26,430 nucleotides of DNA, taken from NCBI GenBank assembly GCA_964454825.1, contig CAYVUJ010000001.1, positions 1-26,430 on the forward strand. The letters run 5' to 3'. The position numbers and the translations under genes were made by a program. This document shows, one piece after another, positions 6,243-21,883 of this stretch. The notes under the pieces were generated by a model. The model was given only the letters and a program-made list of their open reading frames with translations, did not search any database and was not told the DNA's origin. The DNA is from an uncultured Lachnospiraceae bacterium. Lineage in GTDB: Bacteria > Bacillota > Clostridia > Oscillospirales > CAG-272. The stretch's first letter is position 1, and every line of letters starts with the position of its first letter.

Positions 6243-6659
6243 ATGGATCTCAAAGATACACTCCGGAGCGCTCTCGAGGGCATAACGAGCAACGCGGGGG
6301 CGAACACTGTGATCGGTGAGCCTATTGAAACGACGTACGGTACCGTGATCATTCCGGTGTCAAGGGTGATGCTCGGAAATGTGTCCGGCGGGCTTGACAA
6401 TTTGGGCACTCCAAAGACGGCTGAGGCGAAGTCCTCCGGCGCGAAGTTCATCGGCGGCGGCGGAAGCGGCGTTACGGTGAGCCCGGTGGCGTTTCTGATC
6501 GTCTCTCCGGACGGAGGAGTCGAGCTTCTGAGCATAAATCAGACTCCGGCGCCCGTGTCCGATCCGGTGTCCTCCATTGTCGGTGCTATCGAGCGCTCTC
6601 CCGAGCTTATCGAGCGCTTTAAGGCTGTTTTTTCAAAAAATAAGGACGACGCGCAATAA
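6243..6659 (+). CDS. ytfJ: GerW/YtfJ family sporulation-associated protein
   Basis: NTVIGEPI, VIIPVSRV and GGGGSGVTVSPVAFLIV motifs; RBS aaaggaga. Confidence 0.9.
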   Translation: MDLKDTLRSALEGITSNAGANTVIGEPIETTYGTVIIPVSRVMLGNVSGGLDNLGTPKTAEAKSSGAKFIGGGGSGVTVSPVAFLIVSPDGGVELLSINQTPAPVSDPVSSIVGAIERSPELIERFKAVFSKNKDDAQ

Positions 6660-6903
6660 GCCTCCGGCAATTGACGGGCGATGCCCGTGAAAATGCGTTT
6701 TACGATGCCGGGCGGCATCTTGCGCATCATTTTTCCTGAACATCCGCAGTTTTGCACGCGGCATATCGTTTGCGCCAAGGTGTCGATCTGCGTGCCGTGT
6801 ATGCGGGAAACGCCGCTTTTGTGCCGTTTCTCCAAAGATTTCATTGCATATAATGAATTAAACCGCCGAGAATAAATGCAAATCGATTTTTCGAGGTGGT
6901 TTT

Positions 6904-8049
6904 ATGAAAATTATCACGTATTCACTTGCGTTTCTTCTGCTTACAGCGATCATTTGCCCGCTTGTTTTGGCGAGTGCCGCCGATGTGACGGCTGCGGATG
7001 GCCCTGCGGCTGCGGACATCGGCGTGGCGGCGAAGAGCGCCGTTCTTCTTGACGGCAACACAGACAGCATCATATATGAAAAGAACTCCGCCCAGCGCCT
7101 GCCCATGGCCTCCACGACGAAGATCATGACCGCGCTCGTCGCGATCGAGCATATTCCGCTCGATCGTGAGGTGACAGTCGCTGCGGCGGCGTGCGGGGTA
7201 GAGGGCTCGTCTGTCTATCTGCGCGAGGGGGAGAAGTTCACGATGGAGGAGCTTCTGTACGCTCTGCTTCTGAACAGCGCAAACGACGCGGCGACGCAGA
7301 TCGCGATCGCGACTGCGGGCTCGGTCGAGGATTTTGCCGGTCTCATGAACGAAAAGGCGGCCGAGCTCGGTCTTGCGGATACTCATTTTACAAACCCGCA
7401 CGGGCTTGACAACGAGGAGCATTATACCAGCGCCCGCGATCTTGCAGTCATCGCGTCCGCCGCGCTCAAAAATCCGACCTTCCGGCAGATCTGCTCGACC
7501 TACCGTCACACGATCGGTACGGGGGAGAGCACGCGGTATCTGCTCAATCACAACCGCATGCTGAAGCTGTACAAGGATGCTATCGGCGTCAAGACCGGCT
7601 TCACCAAGCGGAGCGGGCGATGCCTTGTCAGCGCCGCCGAGCGTGACGGGGTCACGCTTGTGGCGGTCACCCTGAGTGATCCGGACGACTGGCGCGATCA
7701 CGAGGCGATGCTCGATTACGGCTTCGGGCAAATTGAGTCGGTATCCCTGTGTACCGCTGGATCGGTCCGGCGGGATATCCCGTGTACGGGCGGAGACTGT
7801 GAATCTGTGCGCATTTCGAACAGAGATGCGCTTGATGTGACGCTTCCGGTCGGTCACGGCGAGATCACGGTGACAGTTACCGCCGGGCATATTCTCTTTG
7901 CCCCTGTCGGAGAGGGAGATGCGCTCGGTACGGCGATCTTCTCGTGCGACGGCAAGGAGCTCGGACGGTGCACGCTGTATGCCGAGAACGGCTGTGAATA
8001 TATCGAACAGAAAGGCTTTTTCGAGCGGCTTCTTGACCTCTATCGGTGA
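6904..8049 (+). CDS. dacB: D-alanyl-D-alanine carboxypeptidase (peptidase S11, DacB/DacF-like)
   Basis: Signal peptide, SxxK (STTK), SxN (SAN), NPHGL, KTG; RBS gaggtg. The dacB versus dacF assignment rests on gene context only. Confidence 0.88.
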   Translation: MKIITYSLAFLLLTAIICPLVLASAADVTAADGPAAADIGVAAKSAVLLDGNTDSIIYEKNSAQRLPMASTTKIMTALVAIEHIPLDREVTVAAAACGVEGSSVYLREGEKFTMEELLYALLLNSANDAATQIAIATAGSVEDFAGLMNEKAAELGLADTHFTNPHGLDNEEHYTSARDLAVIASAALKNPTFRQICSTYRHTIGTGESTRYLLNHNRMLKLYKDAIGVKTGFTKRSGRCLVSAAERDGVTLVAVTLSDPDDWRDHEAMLDYGFGQIESVSLCTAGSVRRDIPCTGGDCESVRISNRDALDVTLPVGHGEITVTVTAGHILFAPVGEGDALGTAIFSCDGKELGRCTLYAENGCEYIEQKGFFERLLDLYR

Positions 8050-18167: not shown

Positions 18168-20300
18168 ATGAAGAAGAATCTCAGAATCATAATCATCTAT
18201 GTGGTGCTTATCGGCATCATTGTGGCGGTGACAGCCTCCCTTTACGGTTCCGTCCCGAAGGAGGAGCAGACATACGCCTCTGTCCGCTCGTATTTTGTCA
18301 AGGAGCAGGTGCGCTCGTTCGAGATAAAGTCCGGTGTGCTCAAAATGCAGGTCGAGGATGAAAAGAGCGGCGAGGGTAAGACGAGAACGGTCGAGTACAA
18401 GCTCGGGGATATCTCGCTCACGCTTTTTGTCAACAACATGGGCGAGCTCATCGATGAGCAGTACGACAAGGGCATCATACAGAGTTACGACTATCCGAAG
18501 CCGTACGAATTCCCCGTCTGGGTGTCGGCTCTGCCGTATCTTATCGTCATTGTCGGCTTTGTCGCCGTATGGTTCTTCGTGATGAAGCAGGCGGCGGGAG
18601 GCGGCGCCGGTAAGCCCGGTGCGTTCGGCAAATCGAAGGCGAAGATCAATACTCCGGATAAGGATAAGGTGCTGTTCAAGGATGTGGCGGGCGCCGACGA
18701 GGAAAAGGCGGAGCTCGAGGAGATCGTGGAGTTTCTGCGCGATCCCGCGGCGTTTACAAAGCTCGGCGCCAAGATCCCGCACGGCGTGCTTCTGATGGGC
18801 CCTCCCGGTACTGGTAAGACACTGCTTGCAAAGGCGGTTGCCGGCGAGGCGGGGGTTCCGTTCTATTCGATATCCGGCTCTGATTTTGTGGAAATGTACG
18901 TCGGCGTGGGCGCATCCCGCGTACGCGATCTGTTTGAGACGGCGAGAAAGCATCCCGCCGCGATCATATTCATCGACGAGATCGACGCTGTCGGACGTCA
19001 CCGCGGTGCGGGACTCGGCGGCGGACACGACGAGCGCGAGCAGACGCTCAACCAGCTCCTCGTTGAGATGGACGGCTTCGGAAGCTCCGAGGGTATTATC
19101 GTGATGGCGGCGACCAACCGCCCCGATATCCTTGACCCGGCGCTGCTTCGTCCCGGCCGCTTCGACAGACAGGTCACAGTCAATTATCCCGACCTGAACG
19201 GCCGTGTTGAGATACTCAAGGTCCACGCGAGAAATAAGCCCCTTGAGGCGGGTGTCGACCTTGAGCATGTTGCGCAGACCACGGTCGGTTTCACCGGTGC
19301 GGACCTTGCAAACCTGCTCAATGAGGCGGCGCTTCTTGCGGCGCGCAAGGGCAAGAGCCTGATAGGAAGCATCGATATCGACGAGGCGGCGATGAAGATC
19401 ATCGTCGGCATGCCGAAAAAGAACAACCGCATCAAGCCGCAGGAAAAGCTCAAGACCGCGTATCACGAGGCGGGCCACGCGATCATCGCGCATGTTCTGC
19501 CGTCGCTCGATCCGGTCAAGCAGATATCCGTTATCCCCACGGGGCGCGCGCTCGGTTATACGCTCAATCCTCCGGTCGAGGATAAGTACAGCGTATACCG
19601 CGAGGGCATGAAGGAGGAGATCTGCGAGCTGCTCGGCGGCCGCGTGGCGGAGAAGATCGTTTTCGAGGACGTCTCCGGCGGCGCTTCCAACGATATTCAG
19701 CGCGCGACGCAGATCGCACGCAACATGGTCATGAAGTACGGCATGAGTGACGAGCTCGGTCCGATCCTTTACGGCTCCGAGCACTCCAACGACGAGGTGT
19801 TCCTCGGCCGCGATTTCAATACCGATAAGAACTACTCCGAAGAGACGGCGGCGCTGATCGATAAGGAGATCAAGCGCATCATCAGCGAGGCATTCGAGCG
19901 CGCAGAGAAGATTCTTTGCGAGTACCGCGATAAGATGGACTTTATCGCAAACTATCTCGCAAAGAATGAGGTCATGGATGATAAGCAGTTCGAAGCCGTC
20001 ATGAACGGCGAGCCTACTGTCGAGGAGCTTGAGGAGATGGTGGCGGAGAAAAAGCGCCGCAGTGAGGAGGAGAACGCCGCCCGCGCCGCGCGCATCCGCG
20101 AGAAGGAAAAGGAGCGCGAAAAGGAACGTGAGAAGGCTGAGAGCGCCAAGCGTCAGCGTCCTCAGGGTCCCGCTCAGGGCGGAGCATGGATATTCCCCGA
20201 GATGCCAGGCAACGTATACCGTCCGGACGACGATCCCGCCGACGAGCCGCGCGAGGATGATCCTTCCGACGACTCACAGGACGACGGCGAGGAGAAATGA
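18168..20300 (+). CDS. ftsH: ATP-dependent zinc metalloprotease FtsH
   Basis: Two N-terminal TM helices, Walker [46 protein letters not shown]; RBS aaaggag. Confidence 0.98.
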
Positions 20301-20334
20301 TCCCGCCGGGCGTCCCACGTGAACTTAAAAGCAT

Positions 20335-20370
20335 AAAAATCCGACTGCCGCAGGGCGGTCGGATTTTTTG
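20335..20370 (+). terminator. Intrinsic terminator after ftsH
   Basis: 15-bp stem AAAAATCCGACTGCC / GGCGGTCGGATTTTT (one G-U) with a 4-nt loop and T-run. Confidence 0.85.
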
Positions 20371-20395
20371 CTTATGTCATCAATTATATTATAAA
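20368..20395 (+). promoter_or_regulatory. Possible sigmaA promoter reading into the structured intergenic region
   Basis: TTGCTT (20368-20373) - 16 nt - TATAAA (20390-20395) in an AT-rich patch. Weak match; inference only. Confidence 0.3.
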
Positions 20396-20409
20396 GTTTT
20401 TGAGAGTTT

Positions 20410-20735
20410 TCAGGGAACTTAAGGCGCGCTCCTGGATTGCATTGCGGGCTTTGAAGTTTGTACAAACCCGTTAGCCGGAGTCCGGTGTACATGGCATAAA
20501 GTTTACATGTAAATGAAAGTTCGCGTGCCATGTACCTTCAATGCCGCTTCGCGTCATTCTTTCCAAGCTTTGAATACATTCCACCGGTCCCCCCGGCGGG
20601 ATGTAGGGCAACGCCCGGATGGGTTTGGGGGCGATGGCCCCAAAATCACGTACCCACGCACTTCCGGCGAAAGCCGGAAGTACAAACGACATGAGCCGGA
20701 ATGGCAAAGGCCTCGCGCCGCCGAAGCAGCGTGCA
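20410..20735. ncRNA. Candidate structured non-coding RNA or palindromic element, family unassigned
   Basis: At least eight stems or palindromes, including a 9-bp stem with GAAA tetraloop (20660-20681) and long-range pairings 20543-20551/20722-20730 and 20553-20559/20699-20705; no credible ORF. Strand and family not determined. Confidence 0.45.
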
Positions 20736-20736
20736 A

Positions 20737-20761
20737 AGGGAGAGGTGCTTCACCTCTCCCT
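20737..20761 (-). terminator. Intrinsic terminator after the prsA-like gene (possibly bidirectional)
   Basis: Perfect 11-bp stem AGGGAGAGGTG / CACCTCTCCCT with a 3-nt loop, 9 nt beyond the minus-strand stop codon; the T-tail is short. Confidence 0.7.
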
Positions 20762-20770
20762 CGCGTTATT

Positions 20771-21883
20771 TCAATACAGATCAAAATTCGGTTTCACATT
20801 CGTTACCGAAAAGGCTTTTTCCTTTTCGTCGTTTGCTTTGATCAGCTCAAGCTGTGATTTCAGAAGCTCGTCGTAAAGCGCGTTTTTTAAGGCGCTGTCA
20901 AAATCCGCAAAGAAATCCGCGTTTGCCGTCAGTGCATAGCCGCCGTCGTCAAGCGGCATGCGCTTGATATAGAACGTGCCGTGCTCTGTGTGCAGTTTCG
21001 TCTGCGCGTTTTCATCGAGGTCAAAGGCGGCGGCGACGATCGTCTCGTCATAGTTTCCCGCCGTGGCGTGAGAGAAGTAATATCCGCCGGGATAGTCCGT
21101 GTTCTCCGAGAACTTGGCATACAGCTCCTCGAGATCTGCCCCTGCTGCGAGATTTGCGTCGATCTCGGTCAGCACGCGCTCCTTTTCGGCGCGCTCACTG
21201 TCATTCAGAGGCCGTGTTTTGTACTTGCCGTACTGATCCTGAACATACGCTCCGTCCTGTTCCACATACGCATATGCGTCGTTCACATTGATCTGAATGA
21301 ATCGCACATAATTCTCCCTGTAGAATGTGTCGCGCTCCTCATTCGAGACGGACATCGTGCCGCTTGTGCCATAGTAATGCGCAAAAAGCTGTGACATCTT
21401 CTCCTCGCCGAGGAGCATCTCGCGAAATATTTCGACACTCGCGCCGTATTCGGCGAGGCGCGCTTCAAAGTCCTTGCGGCTGCCGCTGCAGCGTTCCATT
21501 ACGAGATCGTCGATGTAGCTGTCGATCTTCTCCAGAGCCGAATCGGAATCAAAGCCCGACGGGCCCTCGCTGGCAAAGAGCCACTGGGCTCTCAGGAACA
21601 TGCGGATGTTCTCGCGTATGAGCGAGTCCATCCACTCAGCGTTCGTCACCCCTGATGAGTGCCCGGCGCTCCAGAAGGCATCCGTGTCCTTTGCCTCCCT
21701 GTACATCGAGAGATACCGCGCCTTGTAGGTCGCAAAGAGCAGATGATACATGTCCTCGCCGATGTCGTGATTGTGCAGCGACAGAACAACGGAGCCTTCC
21801 TCTTCGTTCTTTCGGCACGCGACGACGGACAGCGCGAGCATGAGCGCCAGAAATAGCGAGATCAGCCGTATTGTGTGTTTCAT
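20771..21883 (-). CDS. PrsA/SurA-like lipoprotein foldase with divergent parvulin domain
   Basis: Lipoprotein signal ending LSVVA-C; helical N domain; parvulin-like segments ELYAKFSEN...PGGYY and TEHGTFYIKR; conserved position after mfd with ATGA-type overlap. Confidence 0.72.
   Translation of the reverse strand: MKHTIRLISLFLALMLALSVVACRKNEEEGSVVLSLHNHDIGEDMYHLLFATYKARYLSMYREAKDTDAFWSAGHSSGVTNAEWMDSLIRENIRMFLRAQWLFASEGPSGFDSDSALEKIDSYIDDLVMERCSGSRKDFEARLAEYGASVEIFREMLLGEEKMSQLFAHYYGTSGTMSVSNEERDTFYRENYVRFIQINVNDAYAYVEQDGAYVQDQYGKYKTRPLNDSERAEKERVLTEIDANLAAGADLEELYAKFSENTDYPGGYYFSHATAGNYDETIVAAAFDLDENAQTKLHTEHGTFYIKRMPLDDGGYALTANADFFADFDSALKNALYDELLKSQLELIKANDEKEKAFSVTNVKPNFDLY

Follow-up and report, generated by a model that had tools for sequence, protein, structure and literature searches.

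The BOX elements of Streptococcus pneumoniae and the NIME/Correia-type mosaics of Neisseria are intergenic, modular repeats in which variable hairpin sub-units follow a fixed order, and they have no obvious transposase. Correia elements are further characterized by terminal inverted repeats and a TA target duplication. The repeats described here resemble these systems in their modular build, a likeness drawn from descriptions of the elements rather than from sequence comparison, and differ from Correia elements in that neither terminal inverted repeats nor a TA duplication is seen. The REP/BIME elements of Enterobacteria and the REPINs of Pseudomonas are likewise high-copy, extragenic, GC-rich imperfect palindromes arranged in mosaics with conserved linkers, and they too form inverted doublets, occur in both orientations, and show compensatory stem changes (PMC2817692, PMC3116915, PMC3337134). 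Unlike REP, BIME, and REPIN, our family lacks a GTAG tag, and the search for a cognate RAYT was negative; its units measure 100–200 nt and comprise three to five different hairpins in fixed order together with conserved non-palindromic boxes. Its hosts are mostly MAGs labelled as gut Clostridia, as opposed to the Proteobacteria that carry REP/BIME/REPIN. The CGTC-tagged and untagged stem-loop families (Di Nocera et al. 2013, PMC3733652) share with the present family abundant palindromes for which no flanked transposase gene was found, dimers, and insertions between dimer partners. Unlike the CGTC-tagged REPs of that study, the text of which mentions no Firmicutes or Clostridia, the stem ends here lack a CGTC tag. 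The closest kin of our family is found among these REP-like stem-loop families without a known dedicated transposase (PMC3733652) and among the mosaics of the BIME/BOX type.

The locus lies in the window, i.e., the whole 26,430-nt stretch of DNA that was analysed. It occupies the 470-nt spacer between two convergent genes, ftsH (encoding Peptidase_M41 and AAA domains; stop at 20300) and a prsA-like gene on the minus strand (stop at 20771). A sequence-only reading had singled out positions 20410 to 20761 as a candidate novel ncRNA or non-autonomous element. We found that the core, 20448–20690 (243 of these 352 nt), consists of dispersed repeat modules that occur elsewhere in the same genome, and we assign it, with a probability of roughly 0.85, as one locus of high-copy, non-coding, GC-rich stem-loop repeats of the REP/BIME, REPIN, and BOX kinds. 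The family appears to be a hitherto undescribed REP/BIME-like mosaic; our literature search found no description of such repeats in Clostridia, and Rfam 15 gave no match. Positions 57–200 of the unit profile align across 20448–20685 (E 3e-19), with one module, termed A, as an insertion into a B unit. The features are as follows, including a second copy of module A elsewhere in the window.

20335 to 20369, plus strand: intrinsic terminator of ftsH, GC hairpin with T run (terminator scan and sequence; outside the repeat)
20448 to 20486, plus strand: 5' part of the B unit, comprising the GAAGTyTGyACAAACCC box, small hairpin CCGGAGTCCGG, and beginning of hairpin H1 (unit profile; box in about 40 aligned copies)
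20456 to 20467: palindrome GTTTGTACAAAC
20475 to 20485: palindrome and small hairpin CCGGAGTCCGG
20478 to 20571, plus strand: module A, nested in the H1 apex of the B unit (module A profile, E 2.6e-17)
20487 to 20496 pairing with 20526 to 20535, plus strand: 10-bp stem, hairpin A1 of module A (compensatory changes)
20502 to 20513: palindrome TTTACATGTAAA
20540 to 20547 pairing with 20551 to 20558, plus strand: hairpin A2 of module A (compensatory changes)
20543 and 20722: distal complements GCCGCTTCG and CGAAGCAGC
20553 and 20699: distal complements GTCATTC and GAATGGC
20572 to 20586, plus strand: conserved 3' extension of module A, GAATACATTCCACCG (..CCAAATTyGAAyG type), a tail common to the flanks of module A copies
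20587 to 20690, plus strand: module B, with the remnant 3' arm of H1, hairpins H2 and H3, the CAAnATCAC linker, and hairpin H4 (module B profile, E 8e-21)
20606 to 20616, plus strand: H2, GGGC-AAC-GCCC (stem covariation)
about 20624 to 20644, plus strand: H3, the TTGGGG/CCCCAA hairpin (stem covariation)
20660 to 20681, plus strand: H4, ACTTCCGGC-GAAA-GCCGGAAGT (stem covariation)
20691 to 20736, no strand: unique spacer holding GAATGGC and CGAAGCAGC (no other genomic match at E≤10)
20737 to 20761, minus strand: terminator hairpin of the prsA-like gene (terminator scan; outside the repeat)
6753 to 6840, plus strand: solo second copy of module A (module A profile, E 2e-12)

The palindromes and stems named in the sequence-only reading were all recovered at their positions, and its description of the region as highly structured was borne out by the fold of the plus strand (MFE −153.7 kcal/mol, versus −120.1 ± 5.7 for shuffles; z −5.9). 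The minus strand folds nearly as well (z −5.2 versus shuffled sequence), suggesting DNA palindromes rather than a strand-specific RNA. The claim that terminators bracket the region also held, as a consensus scan gave terminator-like hairpins at 20347–20359, followed by a T run, and at 20737–20761. Each of the two genes thus owns one of the outer hairpins as its terminator: that of ftsH (20335–20369) begins 35 nt past the stop codon, and that of prsA lies at 20737–20761. In the L166 and L167 orthologues, a hairpin of the GAGGGAG..CTCCCT type comes after the prsA stop, with a similar hairpin in the L168 spacer. The weak upstream promoter that had been proposed was not recovered: a scan of 20200–20900 gave no sigma-70-like promoter. 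With the mosaic placed between two terminators and no promoter predicted, a dedicated RNA product is unlikely; the window copy is probably not a gene and would at most be weakly transcribed by read-through. The region had further been said to hold no credible ORF, in agreement with the position of its 114-aa frame (20513..20857) outside the codon-usage-supported gene calls for the stretch.

The host genome (G000) is a 1.6-Mb MAG assembled into 290 contigs, with an estimated completeness of 57.7%. A 411-nt query yielded 22 BLAST matches on other contigs and about 71–72 nhmmer matches, which were partial. The matches pile up on two blocks, 20449–20587 and 20587–20715, leaving 20300–20447 and the sequence from 20716 onward essentially unique; the flanks 20369–20447 and 20686–20740 have no significant second copy in the genome. 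Iterated profiles detected 102 matches to module B, on both strands, and 29 to module A, and a whole-unit profile seeded with a 209-nt tandem unit from contig C81 detected about 180 matches covering 27 kb. These merge into 107 clusters that make up 1.6% of the assembly, and 31 of them lie within 300 nt of a contig end, as expected of repeats that break short-read assemblies. The copy-number search thus revealed many dispersed copies with variable flanks, the outcome under which the sequence-only reading itself would regard the region as a repeat rather than a gene. Separately, a 28-nt stretch in the ftsH-side unique flank (AAAGTTTTTGAGrGTTTTCAGGGAACTT, 20393–20420) shares 96% identity with C61:2741-2768, in another spacer, where it forms one arm of a perfect hairpin.

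About 40 canonical copies align as an ordered mosaic, in which the B unit has the following order.

1, the conserved box RAAGTCTGCACAAACCC (also given as GAAGTCTGCACAAACCC)
2, a small CCC..GGG hairpin
3, H1, e.g., CCAGAGGGAC-GAA-GTCCCTTTGG
4, one to three H2-type hairpins
5, H3, TTTGGGGC-NNN-GCCCCAA
6, the conserved linker CAACATCGCA
7, a terminal hairpin of two alternative types, CTTCCGRC..GYCGGAAG or GCGCGAG..GAGCGC

Between the small hairpin and the linker, the B unit contains two to four hairpins with 3–4-nt loops. The window copy conforms to this order: its GAAGTTTGTACAAACCC box and CCGGAGTCCGG hairpin are parts of the B unit, after which come module A, in place of the H1 apex, and then H2, H3, and H4. 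The GGGC-AAC-GCCC, TTGGGG/CCCCAA, and ACTTCCGGC-GAAA-GCCGGAAGT hairpins noted earlier correspond to H2, H3, and H4, respectively, and the 10-bp stem at 20487/20526 is A1. The stems vary in a compensatory manner in H1 (CCAAAGGG/CCCTTTGG, CCGGGGG/CCCCCGG, and GTGGGGG/CCCCCAC), in H3 (GGGAC/GTCCC and GGAGGC/GCCTCC), and in H4 (CCGAC/GTCGG and CCGGT/ACCGG), and double-sided changes affect 10 of the 19 pairs predicted by RNAalifold. Two further pairings were considered and not adopted: the closing helix CGGG/CCCG (RNAalifold) showed almost no double-sided changes, and a GTCTGC/GCAGAC pairing drawn by eye was lost across the aligned copies. Module A (96 nt) is composed of A1, a 9–10-bp stem with a loop of about 30 nt, and A2, both of which carry compensatory changes. 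Thirteen of its 22 long copies lie inside a B unit (nine in the opposite and four in the same orientation), while six stand alone. The solo copy at 6753–6840 is intergenic (flanking ORFs 6243..6659 and 6904..8049), and its surroundings contain no B-type module, indicating that module A also occurs on its own.

In the plus orientation of the unit, G:T wobbles are more frequent than A:C mismatches, a possible sign that folding is strand-specific, be it in RNA or in single-stranded DNA. Most of the wobbles stem from one subfamily, and 13 of them represent one inherited variant; this non-independence led us to reject the asymmetry as a sign of a functional strand. The conserved non-palindromic boxes imply a putative sequence-specific recognition.

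The multi-junction fold proposed for the region, in which distal helices close four hairpins, did not survive comparison with other copies. The 5' halves of the closing helices, GCCGCTTCG and GTCATTC, pair locally as A2 across the family, and their 3' partners lie in unique sequence. The closest paralogue (C71:3316-3520; 81–84% identity over module A and the start of module B) retains the 5' halves only, and both distal partners, GAATGGC and CGAAGCAGC, are absent from it. The same reading had envisaged a switch between TGCCAT and ATGGCA. The latter motif occurs twice, at 20491 and, as described, at 20701. Since the distal partners are unique and missing from the C71 paralogue, the branched fold is fortuitous, and so is the alternative pairing of TGCCAT with ATGGCA.

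The orthologous spacers are consistent with this interpretation. In the L168/L169 relative, whose PrsA-like protein is 63% identical, the gene order pth-mfd-prsA> <ftsH-hpt-tilS is kept, and the spacer of 93 nt consists of two terminator hairpins without any repeat. The L167 relative (75%) has only the terminator. In the L166 relative (82% identity in PrsA), the conserved terminator hairpin of prsA is followed by a B-type unit that has the same relative orientation as in the window and different modules, with neither module A nor the CTTCCGGC hairpin. Judged from these spacers, the repeat mosaic is an addition between two terminators, and its composition turns over quickly. Six same-genus genomes carry a prsA-like gene with no ftsH within 1.5 kb, and they were therefore unusable for a comparison of filled and empty sites. 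BLAST of the window copy against 40 relatives gave nothing, the window copy being an atypical query because module A interrupts it, and no relative was detected in the metagenome contigs scanned with the PrsA-like protein. The L166 contig ends within its B-type repeat (L166:5114-5370), 257 nt past the prsA stop, showing that repeats fragment that assembly as well.

A search of the whole window against Rfam 15 at gathering thresholds gave no match. At E≤10, the interval 20280–20800 gave matches at chance level only, and none to 6S. Over all searches, which covered the window, canonical copies, and copies from other genomes, the chance-level matches were to BjrC80 (22.6 versus 80 bits) and Clostridiales-2 (23.2 versus 58.6 bits). 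Twenty further loci likewise gave nothing at the gathering thresholds. The canonical copy L173 weakly matches the full model of Clostridiales-2 RNA (RF02937) in the orientation of the unit, scoring 23.2 bits against a gathering threshold of 58.6 bits. We rejected membership in RF02937, because the L173 match has an E of 0.021 in a small search and no copy from this or the other genomes reaches the threshold.

It is thus extremely improbable that the region is a single-copy structured ncRNA or a divergent 6S RNA. The strong fold z-score and the bracketing terminators speak for such an RNA; against it, 243 of the 352 nt are dispersed repeats, no Rfam family, 6S or other, matches even at E≤10, no promoter is predicted, the minus strand folds about equally well, the distal helices are not kept in the closest paralogue, and the region is missing from the syntenic relative. 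Of the three options offered by the sequence-only reading, the stand-alone multi-junction ncRNA fails on the dispersed copies with variable flanks, the absence from the syntenic relative, and the negative Rfam search, and the divergent 6S RNA on the multi-copy nature of the sequence and the lack of a 6S match at E≤10. The third, an HUH/REP-type non-autonomous element, is taken up below. A false candidate for a novel ncRNA is thereby removed. The case also illustrates that mosaic repeats can mimic a multi-junction RNA by combining a strong z-score of the fold, perfect stems nested in one another, and long-range complements that arise by chance.

The genomic distribution of the clusters is that of intergenic repeats. 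Only 7% of the repeat bases fall in codon-usage-supported genes, versus 72% coding genome-wide. A map of the longest ORFs had placed 66% of the repeat bases in frames, and it was replaced by the codon-usage-filtered map, since GC-rich repeats create long spurious frames that make the former misleading. Relative to co-directional neighbour genes, 40 units are in the same and 38 in the opposite orientation, and the split into convergent, divergent, and tandem contexts (13:12:78) follows that of the background (101:107:698). The clusters show no preference for 3' ends (29) over 5' ends (24). The median length of repeat-bearing spacers is 434 nt, versus 128 nt overall, and the 470-nt ftsH-prsA spacer is typical of the former. 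The genes bracketed by clusters are ordinary, encoding triosephosphate isomerase, a radical-SAM enzyme, an EamA transporter, a methionine gamma-lyase family protein, a ParB-HTH protein, and a phage portal; no transposase is among them. Among dispersed copies, the median identity to the nearest paralogue is 84%, and near-identity is confined to local tandem copies. At C81:2303-2916, three complete 209-nt B units with mutual identities of 90–95% lie head to tail, and C69 has a similar pair; the C81 array probably arose by local tandem duplication.

The arrays might be kept by the host for an action in RNA, as 3'-end stabilizers, auxiliary or bidirectional terminators, or insulators separating convergent genes, in the manner of E. 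coli REP and BIME. Their stable, GC-rich stems are kept by compensatory changes, the median distance between a cluster and the stop codon upstream of it is 56 nt, and the window copy lies between convergent genes, all of which would suit such a role. Compensatory changes in palindromic DNA are, however, possible without selection on RNA. Furthermore, both neighbouring genes have their own terminators, formed by the hairpins conserved in relatives, and the repeat hairpins lack U tracts. Neither 3' ends nor convergent spacers are enriched for clusters, and the syntenic relative does without the element. The lack of an orientation bias is not decisive against an RNA role, as palindromic hairpins fold in either orientation. 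We therefore regard a host-maintained RNA role as unlikely for the arrays and similarly unlikely at the ftsH-prsA locus, where 3'-end stabilization or auxiliary termination finds no specific support.

The signature hairpin of the family is H1 (CCAAAGGGAC-N2-4-GTCCCTYYGGA). This pattern has 32 copies in its own genome and none in the 120 same-family and 200 same-order genomes sampled. It was detected in at least 118 stretches of the genomes of other species, mostly MAGs labelled Ruminococcus, Oscillospiraceae, Clostridia, or Eubacteriales, with a few from unrelated phyla. Ten other genomes, most of them labelled Clostridia, contain 10–85 signature hairpins each; the reversed-pattern control gave 0 everywhere. 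In these ten, the signature hairpin stands first in comparable runs of two or three hairpins, frequently arranged as inverted doublets with a spacer of about 40 nt. No copy of module A was found outside its own genome. The module A profile gave no match in the 118 fetched loci of other genomes. Three matches to a module A pattern in metagenome contigs were dismissed as chance; they are unlike the element, and at least two are probably coding.

The H1 hairpin is also present in MAGs labelled Alistipes sp. (L090:2990-3080), Desulfovibrio/Desulfovibrionaceae, Lentisphaeria, Spirochaetota, and Fretibacterium, and the three-hairpin array of L090 closely resembles the Ruminococcus-labelled copy L041. 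The occurrence of H1 in MAGs labelled as unrelated phyla could reflect horizontal transfer, mis-binning, or convergence.

In a strict REP/REPIN system, a single-copy RAYT (an HUH Y1 enzyme) cleaves and re-joins the hairpins as single-stranded DNA. Several properties of the family point in this direction. The repeats are high-copy, GC-rich palindromes confined to extragenic DNA, as REPs are. REPIN-like inverted doublets occur in other genomes, exemplified by the G144 copies, which consist of an inverted arm, a spacer of about 40 nt, and an arm, and in the host genome the unit consensus begins with H1 in inverted form, some 60 nt ahead of H1 itself. Many of the loops are of the GNA or GNRA kind, which remain stable when the DNA is single-stranded, and the host genome encodes a Y1_Tnp protein. 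However, the one intact Y1 transposase of this 58%-complete assembly is a typical 151-aa IS200-type TnpA (C272:2006-2461) in an AT-rich element with ends unlike the repeats, and the second Y1 match (C25:10384-10533) is a C-terminal TnpA fragment; neither gene is flanked by the GC-rich repeats. Y1_Tnp (PF01797) gives no match in nine of the ten other hairpin-rich genomes, which are mostly MAGs and include assemblies with 200–500-kb contigs and one isolate. All matches in the tenth are interrupted or partial, and stop codons occur in the best of them. Neither a GTAG/CTAC nor a terminal CGTC tag is conserved in the unit consensus or in the 41-sequence alignment, where GTAG precedes H2 in two copies, the window copy being one. 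Lacking both the tag and a cognate RAYT, the strict REP-RAYT reading fails in two defining features, and we consider it very unlikely. The HUH/REP-type option of the sequence-only reading thus stands as regards a non-autonomous repeat element and is not supported as regards the link to HUH/REP-RAYT enzymes, given the IS200 and fragmentary Y1 genes and the nine genomes without Y1_Tnp.

Alternatively, the units could be MITEs that descend from a DDE, TnpB, or IS110-type insertion sequence and rely on its transposase for movement. This explanation would suit their size of 100–200 nt, their location between genes only, the behaviour of module A, which sits within B units either way round or stands alone, and the tandem and inverted arrangements. 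Nevertheless, DDE_Tnp_1 (PF01609), the TnpB zinc-ribbon (PF07282), and IS110 transposase (PF01548) are absent from the assembled 1.6 Mb, which is 58% complete, and the only multi-copy protein family is BspA-LRR/dockerin. Inspection of the module A borders by eye revealed neither a clean terminal inverted repeat nor a target duplication. Units also differ in their number of hairpins, which suits a mosaic better than a fixed element. A MITE origin is accordingly a distinctly unlikely explanation.

Within the preferred reading of a REP/BIME-like repeat mosaic, the family may have spread as selfish, non-autonomous DNA. Against such mobility, no mobilizing enzyme, target-site duplication, or clean terminal inverted repeat was identified, and the diverged dispersed copies give no sign of recent transposition. 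Recognition or copying would act on the hairpins, probably as single-stranded DNA, through an enzyme supplied in trans. At the ftsH-prsA locus, the element would have no dedicated function; it would simply supply a spacer rich in terminators with further stable hairpins. A bolder version, which we put forward tentatively and consider unlikely, is a RAYT-independent hairpin-repeat system of gut Clostridia, in which B arrays spread without a known transposase and module A inserts specifically into hairpin apices or arms in either orientation. If true, it would imply an undescribed enzyme that targets single-stranded DNA hairpins, or a replication- or repair-based copying process, and the patchy distribution would reflect horizontal spread. 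The family offers a modest lead on how REP-like repeats spread where RAYT is absent.

The family takes up at least 1.6% of a small genome, fragments its assembly, gives rise to spurious ORFs, and makes the spacers in which it sits longer, all of which is also a practical problem for MAG annotation. The GC-rich repeats of the window generate spurious ORFs of 76–114 aa at 20513–20857 (plus strand), 20471–20707 (minus strand), and 20554–20784 (minus strand), and such frames are a likely origin of false "hypothetical proteins" in the automatic annotation of this MAG.

Public sequencing runs searched for the locus shared at most 6% of its words, and none contains it. The sole multi-copy protein family in the assembly is a BspA-LRR protein with a type I dockerin (C195:2134-3648, C41:2-1003, and C7:3-461), which suggests a cellulosome-bearing, Ruminococcus-like organism. 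Finally, the tail of FtsH beyond the Peptidase_M41 domain (20090–20300) is long, strongly charged, and of low complexity (EKEKER.., then D/E/P-rich).
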